A stretch of 35,649 nt of DNA from an uncultured virus (IMG/VR IMGVR_UViG_3300025417_000001) (taxonomy: Duplodnaviria; Heunggongvirae; Uroviricota; Caudoviricetes), in IMG/VR virus record IMGVR_UViG_3300025417_000001; one strand, given 5' to 3'. The first letter of the stretch is position 1. The number at the start of each line of letters is the position of its first letter. Positions 1,190 to 31,594 of the stretch are shown piece by piece. A program made the translations under genes and the position numbers. Under the pieces are notes generated by a model that worked only from the letters and a program-made list of their open reading frames with translations, had not been told where the DNA came from and did not search any database.

Positions 1190-2074
1190 TTAGTAGTACA
1201 GGTAAACAATTCCATTACCGCCGTTACCTCCCTTGCCTGGAGAACCACCAGAAGTGCTACCACTTCCTCCTCCGCCACCGCCACCAGCGCCGCCATTGCC
1301 TCCATTACCGCCTTGGTTTGAGTTAGCGTAACTACCTGTTCCTCCATTGCCTGCATAACCTGCGCCACCGCCACCGCCAGGAGAGCCGTAAGAGCCGTTG
1401 CTTCCAGAAGAATTACCTCCAGTGTAAAGTCTAGAGTTTCCTCCTGCTCCCGCTGGATTATTGCCAGCAGGACCGTTGTTTGCTCCCGTTCCGCCTCCAC
1501 CACCTCCAGTTAATCCAGAACCTCCATTAGAACCACTAGAGCCAGAACCAGCAGCCCAAAAACCGCCGTCTCCACCGCCTCCAGCACCTTCAACTGCCAT
1601 GGCTTGTCCAGCAGCAGCACGTTGCATTCCGCCATTATTTGCGGTTGAAGAACCGTGTCCACCAATTGGGTACCCACCTGCACCACCACAACCAGTTCCC
1701 GTAGCATTAGAACCAGCATTCCAAACACTGTTACCGCCCAGACCACCGTTTGCACTAATATTTCCGTAAGAAGATGCGCCTCCAGAACCTCCTGTATTGG
1801 CGTTAGTTCCATACGGAGCGTTATTACCTGTTCCTCCAGAACCAATAGTTACTACAGATGTAGCAGCAGTAAATCCCCAAGCAACACCGCCACCTCCACC
1901 TCCACCAGCGCCAGAGCCACCGCCATTATTACCAGCAGCACCTCCACCTCCACCACCAACGACAATAGCAAATACAGTGTTAACGTTTGCAGGGATTGAA
2001 ATAGTATTAGAGGAGTTAGTGATAGTTTGTTGCAGCGATGCTGCTCCTGTTATTGCTGGTATTGTAATAGCCAT
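1190..2074 (-). CDS. Glycine-rich virion protein (putative polyglycine-II adhesin tip)
   Basis: AAGGAG RBS; VFAIVVGGGGGG and many GGxGG runs; ends GNGIVYLYY. Confidence 0.8.
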   Translation of the reverse strand: MAITIPAITGAASLQQTITNSSNTISIPANVNTVFAIVVGGGGGGAAGNNGGGSGAGGGGGGGVAWGFTAATSVVTIGSGGTGNNAPYGTNANTGGSGGASSYGNISANGGLGGNSVWNAGSNATGTGCGGAGGYPIGGHGSSTANNGGMQRAAAGQAMAVEGAGGGGDGGFWAAGSGSSGSNGGSGLTGGGGGGTGANNGPAGNNPAGAGGNSRLYTGGNSSGSNGSYGSPGGGGGAGYAGNGGTGSYANSNQGGNGGNGGAGGGGGGGSGSTSGGSPGKGGNGGNGIVYLYY

Positions 2075-3082: not shown

Positions 3083-3589
3083 TTATAACCAATACTCAAT
3101 ATCAATTTTACCGTTACCACCAGCACCGCCGTTTCCACCTGAAGGAGCAGCACCTCCACTACCGCCCGCACCAATAGCGTAAGAGATTGATGCCCCTGGA
3201 GTTGTTGAAACAATACTAGTTACAACATCGCCGCTTCCACCGTTTTTCCCAATCAATATACCAGCGTTAGAATATGGAGCAGTGCCGCCCATACCACCTT
3301 GTGCTAAGGCTCCAGTACTTCCTGTAAAAGATTGGTTTGTGTTTGCTAGGTTGGCACCAGGACCACCATTAGCAGACGTTGCTCCAGTAAAGGTAGTATT
3401 TCCACCAGCGCTTGCAGCAGTTCCGTAGTTAGCGGGGTTGGCTGGTTGTCCACCACCACCTGCACCGTACAAGGTCACGTTTACATATGTAACGCCAGCA
3501 GGTACAGTCCAAGAAGTTCCTGATGTAAGAGTTAAGCAATAACGAGTTTTGCTACCAGCAGCAGGTGCTGGATATACTGAGTAGCCCAT
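3083..3589 (-). CDS. Glycine-rich virion protein
   Basis: TSGTSWTVPAGVTYVNVTLYGAGGGG...GGNGKIDIEYW. Confidence 0.8.
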   Translation of the reverse strand: MGYSVYPAPAAGSKTRYCLTLTSGTSWTVPAGVTYVNVTLYGAGGGGQPANPANYGTAASAGGNTTFTGATSANGGPGANLANTNQSFTGSTGALAQGGMGGTAPYSNAGILIGKNGGSGDVVTSIVSTTPGASISYAIGAGGSGGAAPSGGNGGAGGNGKIDIEYWL

Positions 3590-14619: not shown

Positions 14620-14650
14620 AACGAAGAAGCGGCCCCTCTCGGAGCCGCCC
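14620..14650 (-). terminator. Rho-independent terminator
   Basis: GGCGGCTCC-GAGA-GGGGCCGCT followed by TCTTCGTTT on the minus strand. Confidence 0.7.
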
Positions 14651-15032: not shown

Positions 15033-15060
15033 TAAATCCTCCAAATTAGTATCTCGGTTG

Positions 15061-15090
15061 AATAAAGCGGGGACCGAAGTCCCCGCTCTT
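15061..15090 (-). terminator. Terminator after major capsid gene
   Basis: AGCGGGGAC-TTCG-GTCCCCGCT then TTATT; UUCG tetraloop. Confidence 0.85.
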
Positions 15091-19230: not shown

Positions 19231-19301
19231 AGTTAATTCCTAAGAATAGCCCTGCTCCCTGACGAGGGTGGTGGTACAGAGAGCAGGAACTCTATTGTTT
19301 A

Positions 19302-19777: not shown

Positions 19778-21361
19778 CTATCTAAAAAATGGAGATGAGG
19801 ATACTTCTATCTGAGGCATAGTCATTTCCATAGTCAAAGAGCAGGCAATAGCCAAGCTATCGGCATAATCGTCGTGGGCGTGGGCTTCATCAGGAGCTTT
19901 AGCCAAGAAGTTAGGTCCAGTGAACTTGGTCTCTAGGTCAGTCATCTGCTGGTAGAAACGCTTCCATGTTCTAGTGCGACGAGTCTTAGCGTGTGCAGGC
20001 CAACCAACCATCTCTCTATCAATAAGCGCTTTAAGATGCTTCCAACGCTTTGACTGTTCAGGTTGACTACTACCAATAGCAATAACTTCTGCTCTTGGAA
20101 GAAGAAGTTTCATACGTTGGGCTACTGCGTCACCAACACCGTTAGCATCAATGCCAACATACATAACATCGTAGTTTTCTAAAAACTTAGTAATCTGGAA
20201 GTACTGGTCTTCCCAGTCATCACCTTGAATCTCAAGCCAGTTGAGAATGCGGTGGTCAAAGTATCCGAACTCGTCTGGTCTATCCCAGTCCACCCACACT
20301 ACAGTTACAACAGTAGAGTCAATTTTACGCGCTGGGTCAATACCTACAACAACAGGTGTACGGTGCCAAGCACGGACAATCTCTTGAGATGTATCTCCAA
20401 GTTTATCCATAATGTTGGATGTAACGAACATACCGCGTTCAAGAAGCCACTTACAGCAATATGACATCTGGAACTCATCAGACTCTTCACCGATGCGCAG
20501 CATTTCTTTCTTAATGAACTTTGCGTAGTTAGCGTTGCATTTTGCTACATCACGCCAGTCCCATTCAAAGTGGTTCTGCCTTTTACCACGGGTAGTTTGA
20601 CGGCGTTTATTTAATTGGATTGATTTATAAAAGTTGTTCTTATGTGTGGTTGGGGTACCAGTTTTAACCATGGTTCCTGAGTAGTACGCCAACATAGGAG
20701 AGATAGATTTAGAAACTACAAAGTCATCTGCTTCTTGGCACTCGTCAATAACAATGAGATGGAAAGACTTAGATTCAATCTTTGCCCGTGGGTTAGCGGT
20801 CATCATCATAAGAGATGAGCCAGAGTTCTTTAGTTTAATTTGGCGTGTAACTCCTGGAACTCTACCAAGGGAGTCATCAATCTCAGGGTCACCAAGAATT
20901 TCTAATGCGCGCTCAGAGGTAAGACGATTAACAGTTCTACCAAATAGGGTTTCTACCTGACCTTCAACTGGAGCAAACATACCAATCCAAATACCGTTAG
21001 AGAACTTACCTAATAGGTCTGGATACATCTTTGCAAGGCGCGGTAATAGCACCATCAATGCAGCTACAGTATTAGCAATAGTCTCTGACTTACCTGACTG
21101 ACGAGCGGCAAGGGCTGTGATTTCTTCACCATCGTTAATTAGTATAGATTCAATAATGCGACGAGCAAGTGGCATTTGATACGGGTGAAGCTCATGGCCT
21201 ACTAACGCTGTTTGAAATTGAATACAGCGGTCAACGATTTTCTTTACAAACTCTGCAGAGAGTTCATCAAGTTCTATTTCCTCGTCTTCTGGTGGAAGTT
21301 CTTCGCCTTCAACCTCATCGGGAAAAAACTCTTCCTCATCGTCTTCTAATAAATTCTCCAT
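19778..21361 (-). CDS. terL: Terminase large subunit
   Basis: Walker A ARQSGKS, Walker B LIVIDECQE, coupling motif TGTP, RNase H-like VGIDPA and HDDYADS. Confidence 0.95.
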   Translation of the reverse strand: MENLLEDDEEEFFPDEVEGEELPPEDEEIELDELSAEFVKKIVDRCIQFQTALVGHELHPYQMPLARRIIESILINDGEEITALAARQSGKSETIANTVAALMVLLPRLAKMYPDLLGKFSNGIWIGMFAPVEGQVETLFGRTVNRLTSERALEILGDPEIDDSLGRVPGVTRQIKLKNSGSSLMMMTANPRAKIESKSFHLIVIDECQEADDFVVSKSISPMLAYYSGTMVKTGTPTTHKNNFYKSIQLNKRRQTTRGKRQNHFEWDWRDVAKCNANYAKFIKKEMLRIGEESDEFQMSYCCKWLLERGMFVTSNIMDKLGDTSQEIVRAWHRTPVVVGIDPARKIDSTVVTVVWVDWDRPDEFGYFDHRILNWLEIQGDDWEDQYFQITKFLENYDVMYVGIDANGVGDAVAQRMKLLLPRAEVIAIGSSQPEQSKRWKHLKALIDREMVGWPAHAKTRRTRTWKRFYQQMTDLETKFTGPNFLAKAPDEAHAHDDYADSLAIACSLTMEMTMPQIEVSSSPFFR

Positions 21362-21381
21362 ATTAGTCCCTAGTCTAAGTT

Positions 21382-21446
21382 AAAACAATAAGCCTGAGTC
21401 GTTAAACCCAGGCTAGTTGTTGCCACTACGGGGAGAGAAGAGAGGC
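21382..21446 (-). ncRNA. Candidate small RNA or attenuating leader upstream of terL
   Basis: TGT-TATACT at 21461-21453; GCC-[UCUCUUCUCUCCCCGUAGU]-GGC hairpin, then terminator-like hairpin 21414-21391 and UAUUGUUUU. Confidence 0.5.
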
Positions 21447-21452
21447 AGGAAT

Positions 21453-21461
21453 AGTATAACA
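21453..21461 (-). promoter_or_regulatory. Extended -10 promoter upstream of candidate sRNA/terL
   Basis: TGT-TATACT. Confidence 0.6.
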
Positions 21462-21480
21462 AAAATGTAGACAAATCCAC

Positions 21481-21732
21481 TTACAGCGGTGGGCGTGTCA
21501 TGCGTTTATATAACTCCTCTACAACCGCGTGTAGAGCTTCTGCACCTTGCCTAGCCTCAGTTAAATAAGCTTCATCCCGCGACTTTTGATAACCAGATAG
21601 GCATCTACCAACTTCATAAATAGCTTGGTCAGTCCACATTTCTAATTCAGCAGTAGGTATTTTAGATACGCGCTTGGCTACCTTTTCTGAAAACGGTTTT
21701 GTCCAAGTCGTAGACTTTTTAAAAAGTTTCAT
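21481..21732 (-). CDS. Hypothetical helical protein (terminase small subunit candidate by position only)
   Basis: Directly upstream of terL; start uncertain (21732 or 21762). Confidence 0.55.
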   Translation of the reverse strand: MKLFKKSTTWTKPFSEKVAKRVSKIPTAELEMWTDQAIYEVGRCLSGYQKSRDEAYLTEARQGAEALHAVVEELYKRMTRPPL

Positions 21733-23063: not shown

Positions 23064-23351
23064 TTACTTATTGTTTTGTGCAATTGTCTTTTCAGCGTCA
23101 GAAATACCTGCAGAAATTCCTTGAGCCACAACAGCCTCTGGAAGTCCTGTCTTTGCTGAGATGATGTTTGCAACTGACTTAGGATTTAGCTTAGCAAGAG
23201 CTGGGCCAACTAAACCTGCTGCAAGTGCCCAAAGGACTGACTTGTAATCGTGGTGTCCTGGAGTCTTTAAGGTAACGCCAATAATACCTACGGCAGTACC
23301 TGCTGAAGCGTATACATAGTGCTCAACTAGAGCAAGAACTTTCTTATCCAT
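23064..23351 (-). CDS. Holin-like two-TM membrane protein
   Basis: Two hydrophobic segments, then ALAKLNPK. Confidence 0.55.
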   Translation of the reverse strand: MDKKVLALVEHYVYASAGTAVGIIGVTLKTPGHHDYKSVLWALAAGLVGPALAKLNPKSVANIISAKTGLPEAVVAQGISAGISDAEKTIAQNNK

Positions 23352-23653: not shown

Positions 23654-23864
23654 TGTATTTCCATTCTGTGTGATTTATCTAATACAGAATGGTTGTCCGT
23701 GTAAATGCCCCAAAATATGCGATTTCATACAATTTTACACATAAAAAAATAAATTATTTGTTAAAGATGCGCATTTAGACTTGACAATGCTTGTAACTCT
23801 TTGGTTTGCTAGTACATGACAGAAACATTAGAAATAATGTTTTCGCCAACTGAGAGGAGCAGCG

Positions 23865-24398
23865 ATGCTCAATATCAGAATTAATCTAACGATTAATCTA
23901 AAAAAAGTAGGTGCAGGGCTGTTAGCGGGGCTGATCTTTATGGCTCATCTAGTGACACCAGCTTATGCAGTTACAGCAGCGATAAAGGCAGAGACGCCTA
24001 CAACGGTATCTCTCCAGTTCCTTACTGTAACTACTACGCAAGCCCAAGCCGCACTAGACTTGGCTAGCCCTACCGTCAAATACTTTGACCCACAGGCAAT
24101 TGCATTTCTCACTACTTACTCCCAAGGATGGAGTAGAGCAGAGTGGGCATGCCTAAATAACTTATGGAATAGCGAAAGCCACTTCAATCCCAAAGCGCTT
24201 AATATGAGCACCCGTGCTTTTGGCATTGCTCAATTCTTACCTACAACGTGGGGAAACTACAACGTAGTAAAGACACTAAGTGCTAAGCTTCAAATTCAAT
24301 ACGGCCTACGATACGTACAAAAAAGATATGGGAGTATAAATGACCCAGCAGGTGCATGTAATGCATGGAGATTCCACCAAAAGAACGGGTGGTATTGA
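23865..24398 (+). CDS. Secreted lytic transglycosylase-like (SLT/Rpf-like) protein
   Basis: Signal peptide ending PAYA; EWACLNNLWNSES.FNPKA...AFGIAQFL...QIQYGLRYVQKRYG...AW.FHQKNGWY. Confidence 0.85.
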   Translation: MLNIRINLTINLKKVGAGLLAGLIFMAHLVTPAYAVTAAIKAETPTTVSLQFLTVTTTQAQAALDLASPTVKYFDPQAIAFLTTYSQGWSRAEWACLNNLWNSESHFNPKALNMSTRAFGIAQFLPTTWGNYNVVKTLSAKLQIQYGLRYVQKRYGSINDPAGACNAWRFHQKNGWY

Positions 24399-24642
24399 AG
24401 CACCGTACTTTGACGGAAGTCAGGTTTGTGCACAAGTAGACCCAGAACTATTCTTTCCAGAAGGTTCAATGGAGTCTGTGGTAAACCTTAAAATGGTTAA
24501 ACCTTTATGCAAGAGTTGCGAGTTCATGGACCCGTGTCTCAAGTACGCATTAGCTAACCCAGAGCTGCAAGGTATTTGGGCAGGCACTACTGAGACAGAA
24601 CGTAGAATTATGAGAAGGCGCAAAAGAAGAATAGCTGTATAG
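24361..24642 (+). CDS. whiB: WhiB-family Fe-S transcription factor
   Basis: CAQVDPELFFPE...CKSC....C...GIWAGTTETER, basic tail; start uncertain (24340 or 24361). Confidence 0.93.
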   Translation: MHGDSTKRTGGIEAPYFDGSQVCAQVDPELFFPEGSMESVVNLKMVKPLCKSCEFMDPCLKYALANPELQGIWAGTTETERRIMRRRKRRIAV

Positions 24643-28923: not shown

Positions 28924-31365
28924 TTATCTCCCGAACTTCCTTCTAACTGCGGCGATAACGGTCGTTAACACCAAAATCTTTTTAGCTTTCTTACGAGTAA
29001 CAGGGCTCATGTCATTTCCGATGTTAGCCATAGCAACGAACGCGTGGTTAAGTGCTTGAACTCCAGGCACAGCAGCAATGGCTCCTGTTACTGGTTGTTC
29101 AATTACTGGGACAGCAACGTCAGGTGCATTAAATGTTGTTCCGCCTGGTTGTCCGATAAATGTACTTGCAATTGTAATTGCATCGGCGGGGATTGGGAGA
29201 CCTGAACCAGGAGGAGGAGCAGGTGGTGTTAGCTTTCCATCTTCACCCACAACTTGCGGTGCTGATTTAGTTCCAAAAAACTCAATACCGCCGTTTTCAA
29301 CACCTGCTTGGTCTACCTGAACATGGGGTACCAAAACTTCTGCAGGTGCAACTTTAGGTGTAGTATCAGACAATTGATCAGGGCTATTAGATACAAGCCC
29401 AGGAACTACAGGAGGTTGCGGTGCAGGACTTGGTGCAGGTGCTGGAGCGGGCGCAGGAGCGGGTGCAGGCGCTGGCAAAGGAGCAGGTTGCGGTGCTGGG
29501 GCTGGTTGTGGCTCTGGTTGCGGAACTGGCTGAGGATCAGGAGTAGGCTGTGGAGCAGGAGCAGAATCAGGTTGCGGAGTATCTGGAGCGGCGGGCGCAG
29601 CAGGCGCTGGAGAAGGCTTTGGCAAAGGAGGCTGCGCGACAGGCTCAGGAGCGGGAGCCGTGGGCGTCGGAGTCAATAGCAGAACCACCGATTGCGCAAC
29701 AGAAGTTACAGTAGTAGCAGCATCGTTCACTGCTGCAGTTGCAGTATCTGCAAGTGATTCAGCAGAAGCAAGAAGAGATGTCGCAGTATCTTCCGTAACT
29801 TGTAAAACTGTTTGAGCAGTAGCTAACTGTGCAGTAGCAGAATCATAGTTTGCTTGTGCAGTTGCTTGTACTGTTTGTTGTATAGTTAATGCGTTTTGCG
29901 CGGTTAAAAGTGCATTTTGATATGTTGCAAGGGTATTTGTATCAGAATTAAGAATTGATTTAGCAGCGTCTGCAGCAGCAACCAAGGCTGGGTCTTGAAC
30001 AGTACTGCTTACTAAATGACTATAGTTAACTGAAGTAGGGGATGTAAAGTATTGGTTATTTACCATCCATCCTAAAGTAACCCCAGCACCACCGCCGTTT
30101 TCATAATACCAAAGCGTTATAGCTTGAGTTTTATTAGTAGAAACATCTATAGGAGCGCTATAACCACTCCAGTTTAATCCTTGGTCTCTCCAGTTATTTA
30201 CCGCTAAATTTCCATTTATATAAAGTCTAGAGCCGTCATCTGAATAGACCGCGTATTTAATGGTGTTCATACTTGGGTCTACAGTTATCTGTCCTGTGAA
30301 TTTAACTATTACATGGTCGGATAAGCCAGAGTTAAGAATCTGACCACTTCCCCAGTTAAAGTTGATTGTTGGAACAGTCAAAGTTTCTATTGGTGTTGCG
30401 TTTGCTGCAGGCAAGGCTGGTGAAGAACCATTTGCCGCCGCATACACTTGAGCAACTAATCCTGGGGCTGAAACAGTTCCAGTTACAGCAGAGTTAGCAG
30501 CAGCTGCTTGAGCATTTGTCAAATTGACAGTATCTGTTGCAACCACAGCGGTTTGGGTATCTACATTAGATTGGGCCAAATCTACATTAGATTGGGCTGT
30601 AGCCGTATTTGTCTCTTCTGTAGATAGGGTAGCTTGGGCATCAGCCACAACAGCCGTGGCGCTATCTACCCCAGCTTGGGCTACGACTACGACATCTGCG
30701 GCGTTCTTAGCGGCTGTGAGGGCATCCTGAGCCGTTTGAAGGGCATCTTGGGCGCCTTGTACGGCTACTGTGGCACTATCCACCATAGATTGGGCTTCAG
30801 GATTATTTGCCACCTGATTTACTACATCTGGCAAAGTTTGCAAAGTAGCAGTAGCAGAATCAACGGCGTTCTGTAGAGTAGACTGAGCAGTGGTTATTTG
30901 ATTAGATACAGAGGTTAAAGATGTGGCGAAAGTATCGGAAAATGAAACAGGAGATTGCGGAGCTGAAGAGGGTTGCGTTTGATTACCAGAAAGACTGGCA
31001 TCGGATGATGAATCTTGTGAAAGCGATGGATTTAGAACTTGAGCACTATCAAGAGTTGAATCAGAGGTTGATGAAAGACTTGAAGAAGAGGAAGAAGAAG
31101 TAGATGGCTGTACTTGAGATTCTACTAACACTGTTGAGTCTGATTGGACTTGCTGCGTATCTGACGTACTTAGAGTGGAAGATGTCGCATCCGAATTGGA
31201 TGAAAGATTCTGAGACTGCTCAGAAGCAGTCGTTAAAGAATCTGCAGCGTTAGCTTTTGTAGGCAAGCCAAAAGTTAGGCAGAAGAGAACGGCACCTCCG
31301 CCAAGGCCTAAGTGAACCAGTTTTTTATTGTCAACGAATTGTGCTGCGAGATTGCGCAGTTTAAT
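28924..31365 (-). CDS. Large exported surface protein: signal peptide, Ser-rich region, coiled-coil stalk, PA14 domain, Pro-rich spacer, C-terminal hydrophobic anchor
   Basis: PA14 motifs INFNWGSG, SDDGSRLYING, YYENGGGAGVTLGW; in-frame extension upstream of 31266 encodes a signal peptide, probable ATT start at 31365. Confidence 0.8.
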   Translation of the reverse strand: MKLRNLAAQFVDNKKLVHLGLGGGAVLFCLTFGLPTKANAADSLTTASEQSQNLSSNSDATSSTLSTSDTQQVQSDSTVLVESQVQPSTSSSSSSSLSSTSDSTLDSAQVLNPSLSQDSSSDASLSGNQTQPSSAPQSPVSFSDTFATSLTSVSNQITTAQSTLQNAVDSATATLQTLPDVVNQVANNPEAQSMVDSATVAVQGAQDALQTAQDALTAAKNAADVVVVAQAGVDSATAVVADAQATLSTEETNTATAQSNVDLAQSNVDTQTAVVATDTVNLTNAQAAAANSAVTGTVSAPGLVAQVYAAANGSSPALPAANATPIETLTVPTINFNWGSGQILNSGLSDHVIVKFTGQITVDPSMNTIKYAVYSDDGSRLYINGNLAVNNWRDQGLNWSGYSAPIDVSTNKTQAITLWYYENGGGAGVTLGWMVNNQYFTSPTSVNYSHLVSSTVQDPALVAAADAAKSILNSDTNTLATYQNALLTAQNALTIQQTVQATAQANYDSATAQLATAQTVLQVTEDTATSLLASAESLADTATAAVNDAATTVTSVAQSVVLLLTPTPTAPAPEPVAQPPLPKPSPAPAAPAAPDTPQPDSAPAPQPTPDPQPVPQPEPQPAPAPQPAPLPAPAPAPAPAPAPAPSPAPQPPVVPGLVSNSPDQLSDTTPKVAPAEVLVPHVQVDQAGVENGGIEFFGTKSAPQVVGEDGKLTPPAPPPGSGLPIPADAITIASTFIGQPGGTTFNAPDVAVPVIEQPVTGAIAAVPGVQALNHAFVAMANIGNDMSPVTRKKAKKILVLTTVIAAVRRKFGR

Positions 31366-31393
31366 TTTTAATCTCTCCCCAGAGTGTCAAAGA

Positions 31394-31594
31394 CTATTTT
31401 ATCAAATTAAATTCGCCCTCAGGGTCAAACACATGATTTGCTTTTAGTATTAACTCTGTTCCTGCTTGTCGTGCGTGATGCCCACAGAATAATAACTCAC
31501 CTGTTGTAAATGTAGCTACAACTTTTGCAGCAGCGCCGCAAGAATCACAACGGTCCGCTAGCGTTAGTTCACGCGTAGTTACCGTTGTTGTCAT
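31394..31594 (-). CDS. Actinobacterial small Zn-binding protein (DUF7455-like)
   Basis: LTLADRCDSCGAAA...GELLFCGHHAR. Confidence 0.8.
   Translation of the reverse strand: MTTTVTTRELTLADRCDSCGAAAKVVATFTTGELLFCGHHARQAGTELILKANHVFDPEGEFNLIK

Follow-up and report, generated by a model that had tools for sequence, protein, structure and literature searches.

A conserved promoter-hairpin-terminator cassette before terL in freshwater phages: a candidate small-RNA gene and attenuator

The described systems that come closest to the element reported here are found in phages as well as in bacteria. Morons are autonomous promoter-gene-terminator units between phage late genes, nut (lambda N) and put (HK022) are antitermination RNAs, lambda 6S RNA is about 194 nt long, and RsaE/RoxS are small RNAs (sRNAs) with C-rich loops from Gram-positive bacteria that lack Hfq. 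In the Stx/lambda late leader, a short terminated RNA is described as the default product and as being able to act in trans (StxS) (PMC7547250), and the C-rich loops of the 6C sRNA of Actinobacteria are reported to pair without a chaperone (PMC6486639). A review of phage sRNAs, searched by term, returned no mention of an actinobacterial or terminase-linked case (PMC12197685). Here we analyse a cassette directly upstream of the terminase gene terL, on the minus strand (21461-21381) of a 35,649-nt stretch of DNA from an uncultured virus (IMG/VR record IMGVR_UViG_3300025417_000001). This whole stretch, referred to below as the window, is a fragment of a tailed-phage genome that would measure roughly 100 kb in full. 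The original prediction, made from the letters alone, had seen here a complete mini transcription unit for a phage sRNA with an exposed anti-Shine-Dalgarno loop, acting in trans on envelope genes and/or attenuating the terminase gene. We find that the element is real and strongly conserved and is a new family of phage RNA element, and we tentatively read the cassette as a small-RNA gene that may double as an attenuator before terL. The anatomy first described was right, and the accompanying model of targets is mostly unsupported.

All named parts of the transcription unit are present on the minus strand. The extended -10 promoter box, TGTTATACT (TGT-TATACT; 21453..21461 (-)), stands where the original prediction had placed it and is separated by six bases from the arm UGCC of a first stem, P1 (21421..21447 (-)), in which UGCC (21447-21444) pairs with GGCA (21424-21421) around a 19-nt loop, UCUCUUCUCUCCCCGUAGU, that includes UCUCUUCUCUCCCC. 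The CU-rich tract at this point, CCTCTCTTCTCTCCCC (21430..21445 (-)), is the most sequence-constrained single-stranded part of the element. A linker of 6 nt leads to the second hairpin, P2 (21391..21414 (-)), a predicted intrinsic terminator of 10 pairs, five of them G-C, which was called on the minus strand only. It is followed by the U-rich tail TATTGTTTTA (21381..21390 (-)), which reads CTTTTTGTTTT in most relatives. The predicted RNA of about 64-66 nt would extend from the G of GCC to the end of this tail (21381..21446 (-)). After the hairpin the window reads UAUUGUUUUA, then CUUAGACUAGGGACUAAU and then AUG, such that the tail, which had been expected near terL, ends 19 nt before the terL ATG at 21361; between the two lies a post-terminator box, TAGACTAGGG (21368..21377 (-)), with the form TARACTARGG in relatives. 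The minus-strand RNA folds at -23.3 kcal/mol (z = -4.28, with 0 of 200 shuffles as good), and the plus strand gives z = -1.83. The gene terL itself (19778..21361 (-); PHROG 2 at 9e-33, Pfam Terminase_6C) is the first gene after the cassette.

The evidence for the two helices comes from the relatives of this locus. P2 is lengthened in relatives by pairing of the A-rich linker with the U-rich tail, and in P2 with this A/U extension compensatory changes are found in 10 of the 12 pairs, with 96.5% of the cells paired. None of 500 shuffles matched the observed value on any of five measures, and sliding the partner by one column reduced pairing to approximately 50%. About 70 P2 cells are G-U or U-G wobble pairs, which are mismatched on the opposite strand. 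This means that the structure belongs to the terL-sense RNA, and it extends to the relatives the earlier observation that the G-U pairs of the 10-bp terminator stem fit only the minus strand. P1 was read by hand since the model's own alignment misregisters it. Two lineages have ACC/GGU in place of GCC/GGC, an outer pair shows covariation (CUGCC/GGCAG, UUGCC/GGCAA), and the stem reads GCCGCG/CGUGGC in one contig (L018) versus ACCGCG/CGUGGU in another (L385). The terminator hairpin is part of the minimum-energy fold of 45 of 50 unique RNAs, in which the CU tract has a predicted mean unpaired probability of 0.82. P2 also shares its shape with the intrinsic terminators of genomes from a candidate host order.

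Constraint was expressed as the mean majority-base fraction over 65 unique sequences. It amounts to 0.97 and 0.96 in the P1 arms, 0.87 in the CU loop, 0.92 and 0.84 in the terminator arms and 0.84 in the U tail, with 0.58 in the spacer after the -10 box and 0.62 in the linker; third codon positions give 0.62 in terL and 0.44 in the upstream gene. Loop conservation, which had been named as a check on the original prediction, is therefore found (0.87 versus 0.62 at the terL third positions), and by these values the loop is under purifying selection. A 36-codon frame spanning 21370-21480 is broken among relatives by indels of 1-2 nt; a coding function is excluded by these indels, and the reading of the tract as a 36-aa peptide was ruled out on this ground. 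The -10 box conforms to TAnnnT in 65 of 65 unique relatives. A canonical TGn accompanies it in 48, among which 12 different hexamers occur, and in most of the 17 relatives without a canonical TGn the TG is shifted by one base. The distance from the end of the box to the P1 arm (G of GCC) is 6-7 nt in 51 of 63 cases, so the RNA probably starts with the P1 arm. Across both strands of the whole window the motif TGnTAnnnT is depleted (72 sites versus 99.7 +/- 11.3 expected, all 100 shuffles having reached at least 72 sites). Such a depletion would be expected if the motif is a working host promoter signal, and may reflect selection against stray promoters.

Upstream of the promoter lies a further conserved box, GGATTTGTCTAC (21467..21478 (-)), with a single exact copy in the window, which in most relatives reads as the near-palindrome ATTTGTCGACAA(A/T)T. 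The near-palindrome, ATTTGTCGACAAAT, stands directly upstream of the -10 box in most relatives and may be an operator. Since it has been lost in one sub-lineage (L029, L022, L063, L076), it falls outside the minimal unit.

The search of IMG/VR with terL gave at least 600 relatives, of which the best 80 loci were kept. BLASTN with the 140-nt intergenic stretch matched 60 of these 80 loci. With a covariance model derived from 41 sequences, 79 loci proved to hold a single copy each, always on the terL strand and immediately before terL; in the remaining locus (L049) the DNA reaches only about 20 nt upstream of terL. Among 14 further loci the model found the copy in 13, the diverged copy of the last (L385) being recognised by eye. 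In the window the single copy (21381-21447) scores 80.2 bits with the same model and the runner-up 13.5 bits, and in all five long contigs searched, of which two have a completeness rating of 100%, there is one strong copy at 36-86 bits, no other hit exceeding 23 bits. A loose-pattern scan of viral contigs led to 80 fetched loci of which only one was real, which indicates that the covariance model is specific, and a strict pattern had no match in 185,579 species genomes. When a host homologue was sought in 151 genomes of the order to which the Nanopelagicaceae bin belongs, only terminator-shaped hits of 32 bits or less were returned. No family of Rfam 15, 6C included, reached its gathering score, and nothing relevant appeared at E values up to 10. 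The closest cultured terL is that of Streptomyces phage BRock (53% identity); the element was not found in BRock, LuckySocke or Bacillus phage BCD7, and no DNA match to the window was found among cultured phages. A catalogue compiled from IMG/VR contains 8,495 unnamed motifs, some within 25 bp upstream of terminase genes, and 12 of the 14 'psiM2_ORF9 terminase' motifs checked in it are marine or from the human gut (PMC10690425). Judged by their table entries only, two of its motifs, DNAVirus_3210 (48 nt, 203 sequences, 134 of them freshwater) and DNAVirus_1274 (49 nt, 10 lake sequences), could overlap with the element, which may therefore have been catalogued already, though not described there (PMC10690425).

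The element is confined to one clade. Two genome-bin relatives whose terL is 77-78% identical are without it, and in this sister clade it is present in 0 of 83 loci, including all 80 IMG/VR loci around the genome-bin relatives; a genome-wide search of four near-complete sister-clade genomes found it in none. In 80 of 80 sister-clade loci the homologue of the gene upstream of the cassette overlaps the start of terL by 1-14 nt, and in Bacillus phage BCD7 the upstream gene adjoins terL, whereas in the element clade the two genes stand 99-149 nt apart in 77 loci and 318 nt apart in two. The overlap there and the gap here mean that the cassette is an insertion of approximately 100-150 bp. To judge from this arrangement, the insertion would have split two translationally coupled genes and brought along a promoter, a terminator and a new ribosome-binding region for terL, and the cassette would be built like a moron with an RNA as its product. 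The sister clade with its overlapping genes thus offers a natural comparison of phages with and without the cassette. The upstream small gene (21481..21732 (-)) encodes a protein of 83 aa, has its stop 119 nt before terL and has homologues in 156 loci. Its AlphaFold2 model is a three-helix bundle with a predicted local distance difference test score (pLDDT) of 87, and no informative sequence match or structural match in the PDB was found; the idea that it is the small terminase was dropped, given a three-helix fold without an informative match.

Our best explanation, held tentatively, is as follows. One clade of freshwater whiB actinophages would have acquired the cassette of about 100-150 bp between the small gene and terL, in the order of an extended -10 box, 6-7 nt, an RNA of about 62-70 nt and a terminator placed so that about 20 nt remain between its end and the terL start. 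The 5'-terminal P1, of 3-6 bp, would present a single-stranded CU-rich loop of 18-24 nt. Most transcripts, whether they come from the cassette promoter or from the upstream genes, would stop at the terminator and yield a discrete small RNA, and the fraction that reads through would provide the terL mRNA. The cassette would in this way attenuate, uncoupling terL from the gene to which it was formerly coupled in translation. The invariant CU loop is likely to be the working surface, which would pair with purine-rich RNA without a chaperone, as the loops of 6C and RsaE do. Attenuation of the terminase gene had been one of the options in the original prediction, and it fits both the anatomy and the natural variants described below, namely the contigs in which tRNA genes abut the terminator and the copy in L385.

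The part of the original prediction that concerned the loop stood only in part. The loop is predicted to be single-stranded, as stated above; it carries CCUCU, the host anti-Shine-Dalgarno (anti-SD) core CCUCC is missing from it (the 16S rRNA 3' end in four candidate-host genomes is CACCUCCUUUCU), and the usual SD of the phage is AAGGAG. Its binding to ribosome-binding sites (RBSs) is no better than that of permuted loops. Averaged over 46 start regions, the loop's duplex energy comes to -7.28 kcal/mol versus -7.71 for 300 permuted loops, and sites at -10 kcal/mol or below number seven versus 9.9 expected, so the original caution that short SD matches can arise by chance was well placed. A general anti-SD role of the loop is not supported by these comparisons. 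The only RBS that stands out is that of the PA14 gene, where GGGGAGAGA at 31380-31372 is, as predicted, perfectly complementary to the loop over 9 nt, lies 6 nt before an in-frame ATT and reaches -19.2 kcal/mol, a value equalled by 2.3% of permutations. The homologues of this gene also have G-rich SDs (GGGGGG in G002, GGGAGAG in G003), making three of three element-bearing genomes, and the sole element-free genome with a PA14 gene has the purine-rich AGAGGAGA at the SD position; a homologue was present in just three of 28 further contigs, which is a small sample. Two further pairings had been proposed, and the sequences behind them exist, AAGAGAG upstream of the gene at 23351 and GAGAGG upstream of the transglycosylase gene, with the qualification that the complementarity of the transglycosylase RBS to the loop is only 5-6 nt. 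The transglycosylase gene occurs in three of three element-bearing versus none of three element-free complete genomes. Repression of envelope genes in trans, as first envisaged, is for the most part not supported, the PA14 site being not consistently conserved and the RBSs showing no excess over permutations; a specific target of the loop is possible. No pairing of the loop with the SD region of terL itself was found. The GA-rich start of terL was tried as a partner and rejected, because the difference between the element clade (-14.5 kcal/mol) and the sister clade (-13.3 kcal/mol) is matched by control regions and is not specific.

Some features of the PA14 gene itself may be recorded at this point. 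It encodes a PA14-domain secreted protein with a clear signal peptide upstream of the first ATG, GTG or TTG (31359-31404 (-)), and its apparent start codon in the window is ATT (31365) or CTG (31359). Homologues (L214, about 3100-3140 (-); L213, about 1320-1345 (+); L320, 1385-1410 (+)) start at TTG, ATG or ATA/ATT. The gene has its own TGATAAAAT box at 31404-31396.

Since only 19 nt separate the tail from the ATG, transcription of terL has to come through the terminator or else begin inside those 19 nt. Natural variants hint at the former. In one sub-lineage, represented by four contigs, a tRNA-Thr(UGU) gene begins 1 nt after the tail, followed by tRNA-Asn(GUU) and only then by terL (L079, 2692-2843; L080; L410, 892-1043; L412, 898-1049). 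No room is left for a promoter between the tail and tRNA-Thr, so these tRNAs need read-through. In the diverged copy of L385 (960-1100) the U tract is missing, while promoter, P1, loop and hairpin are all retained and the helix extension is rebuilt as GGUU/AACC; no second case occurs in 94 loci, and no other contig of this kind was found in IMG/VR. Another feature might allow a start inside the 19 nt. The strongly conserved TARACTARGG box serves as the SD of terL and also holds a -10-like hexamer, TAnACT, which occurs as well in 31 of the 48 upstream -10 boxes that have a canonical TGn. Among 81 loci the end of this hexamer lies 9-10 nt from the ATG in 60, 8 nt in five, 15 nt in four and 23 nt in two, and was not found in five. 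In the other five loci, which make up two lineages without a terL SD, the distance to the ATG is exactly 6 nt, a spacing that would be compatible with a leaderless terL mRNA made from a second promoter.

Several of these results weigh against an RNA that acts in trans. The element is seen nowhere except directly before terL, which suits a cis-acting leader at least equally, and the same can be said of the tRNA-Thr gene that abuts the terminator in four contigs; L385, without its U tract, fits a cis-acting leader no worse than a trans-acting RNA. No convincing target in trans was found, the loop performing no better than its permutations across the 46 RBSs. In a scan of the whole minus strand the PA14 site comes first at -19.2 kcal/mol, but the next sites follow at -18.8 and -18.7, and in the complete relative G002 the homologous PA14 site is outside the top 15. 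A 14-nt complement of the loop with at most one mismatch is present in 48 of 151 candidate-host genomes, and a reversed control also matches many; no loop-complement site shared across these genomes of the candidate host order was found. The alternative that gains from these points, which we regard as possible and less probable than an sRNA gene with attenuation, is a cis-acting late-gene switch of the kind formed by the lambdoid PR'-6S RNA-tR' leader or a nut site. A factor that reads P1 and the CU loop, or the upstream near-palindrome, would make RNA polymerase resistant to the terminator and so open terL and the structural genes, the short RNA being only a by-product. The order of promoter, terminator and terL with 19 nt from tail to ATG, the invariant position before terL, the single copy per genome and the read-through that the abutting tRNA genes require would all follow, as would the persistence of L385 without a U tract and the near-palindrome just upstream of the -10 box in most relatives. 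The Stx/lambda late promoter is an established example of such a design (PMC7547250). A second leader in the same phages points in this direction as well. The transglycosylase-WhiB operon is preceded in the window (23740-23870 (+)), G002 (about 97160-97295 (+)) and G003 (about 88015-88140 (-)) by TTGACA and TGnTAnnnT, followed by a hairpin that covaries between three different sequences, a U run and finally the invariant SD ACTGAGAGGAGCAGCGATG, and would thus be a second leader of the terL-cassette design. Against a switch, no Q-, N- or RinA/ArpU-like protein was detected by Pfam and PHROG among the 48 open reading frames (ORFs) of the window, a weak argument since the window is a fragment, and no Q-binding element was found. 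The initially transcribed region consists of variable bases and then GCCUCUC, with no sigma-dependent pause signal in the form of a -10-like repeat (TAnnnT). The RNAalifold consensus from P1 to the ATG holds P1 and P2 only, with no alternative antiterminator pairing, and the near-palindrome is lost from one sub-lineage. Mimicry of boxA by the CU loop was rejected, the rrn boxA in the rrn leader of four candidate-host genomes being CCUUGAGAACUCAACAG, which differs from the loop.

The remaining alternatives are less probable. It is quite unlikely that the element is only a structured 5' untranslated region, in which an internal promoter drives terL, P2 is not a terminator in vivo, and P1 and P2 guard the mRNA against 5'-end-dependent decay or help ribosomes to load. 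P1 does begin at the inferred 5' end, L385 retains everything except the U tract with its helix extension rebuilt, two lineages without a terL SD still keep the element, and an insertion between genes that are coupled in the sister clade had to provide a new start for terL translation. Stability alone would leave unexplained an invariant loop of 16-18 nt, no pairing between the loop and the SD region was found, and the U tract is conserved (0.84), being present in 93 of 94 loci directly after a hairpin of the host-order terminator type. Titration of a host or phage RNA-binding protein by the C-rich, G-poor unstructured loop is very unlikely in our estimate, even if the conserved single-stranded tract of 16-18 nt is longer than usual sRNA seeds and an RNA target was not found. 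Rho prefers C-rich unstructured RNA and, as it loads on YC-rich RNA, would be one candidate, along with ribosomal protein S1, a cold-shock protein or a defence sensor. A decoy would not explain the fixed site before terL and its partner protein is not known; the two complete genomes with the element have 41 ORFs in common that three element-free genomes lack, and of the seven of these that match the window, five fall in frames without a named RNA-binding domain (Pfam/PHROG). The last alternative, an absence of RNA function, is disfavoured and in our view extremely improbable. Phage module junctions can be conserved as DNA, and the stretch might be a module-boundary linker kept by recombination, or simply the upstream operon's terminator with a -10-like box beside it by chance; the terminator does also end the upstream operon, since no other terminator was found on the minus strand between 23026 and 21414. 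Compensatory changes, however, preserve both helices, the wobble pairs suit one strand only, the loop is more conserved than the synonymous sites of both flanking genes, and the conservation pattern of the -10 box with its fixed distance to P1 speaks against chance. A bolder idea, which we consider rather unlikely, is that P1 and the CU loop are the RNA half of a new antitermination or host-takeover system of actinobacterial phages. They would then form a nut-like site through which a factor sets the timing of the packaging and structural genes or, alternatively, belong to an abundant riboregulator that captures the purine-rich RNAs of an abundant, Hfq-less freshwater host.

The phage itself is best described as a freshwater actinophage, its host being assigned by inference only. 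The window has a G+C content of about 44% and encodes WhiB (24340-24642 (+)), and downstream of terL the genes for portal, scaffold, capsid and collagen-like fibre proteins also lie on the minus strand. Three related contigs (L227, L228, L229) are binned in metagenome-assembled genomes of three unrelated phyla, as Nanopelagicaceae (Candidatus), Saccharimonadales and Armatimonadota, so that bin membership is weak as host evidence. Together, whiB and the one Nanopelagicaceae-binned contig suggest that the carriers may infect small freshwater actinobacteria. These bacteria are difficult to culture, and a limited literature search found no case of RNA-based regulation in them. The carriers form a very large, globally sampled group of freshwater phages, judging by the at least 600 terL relatives matched in IMG/VR, and for these phages the cassette gives a concrete handle on the timing and dosing of late genes. 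The tRNA-fused terminators and the copy without a U tract provide natural variants that already point to read-through. Should the loop act in trans, these phages would have a counterpart to the C-rich-loop sRNAs of bacteria without Hfq. Other hairpins were noted among the genes downstream of terL. Between two small genes there is an 11-pair hairpin (CCUGCUCUCUG ... CAGGGAGCAGG) with a C-rich loop (19231-19301 (-)), and terminator-like hairpins follow the major capsid gene (15050-15085 (-)) and the next gene (14627-14650 (-)); the latter two hairpins are the usual dosing arrangement of structural operons.

Compared with the described systems, the cassette resembles the lambdoid PR'-6S RNA-tR' leader in having a promoter and an intrinsic terminator within about 65 nt, with late or packaging genes next. 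It differs in residing in a presumed actinophage, in being inserted between formerly overlapping genes and in its unrelated sequence, and its RNA is much shorter than lambda 6S. With nut and put it shares a promoter-proximal hairpin and a pyrimidine-rich element in the nascent RNA upstream of a terminator; unlike them it has that terminator within the same 65 nt and a tract unlike boxA, and no N-like protein was found among the 48 ORFs. Like morons it carries a promoter and a terminator of its own, and the genes between which it was inserted are neighbours in relatives, where they in fact overlap, but the product would be an RNA rather than a protein and the cassette is fixed across a clade rather than sporadic. 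The likeness to 6C and RsaE lies in a short, terminator-ended RNA with an accessible and conserved C-rich loop. The loops of those sRNAs pair with G-rich, SD-like mRNA sites, whereas a conserved target of the cassette loop was not found, and the cassette is phage-encoded with one large CU loop as against the two C-rich loops of 6C. By analogy, then, the cassette would work like the lambda/Stx late leader or like a 6C-type sRNA, and it belongs to neither.

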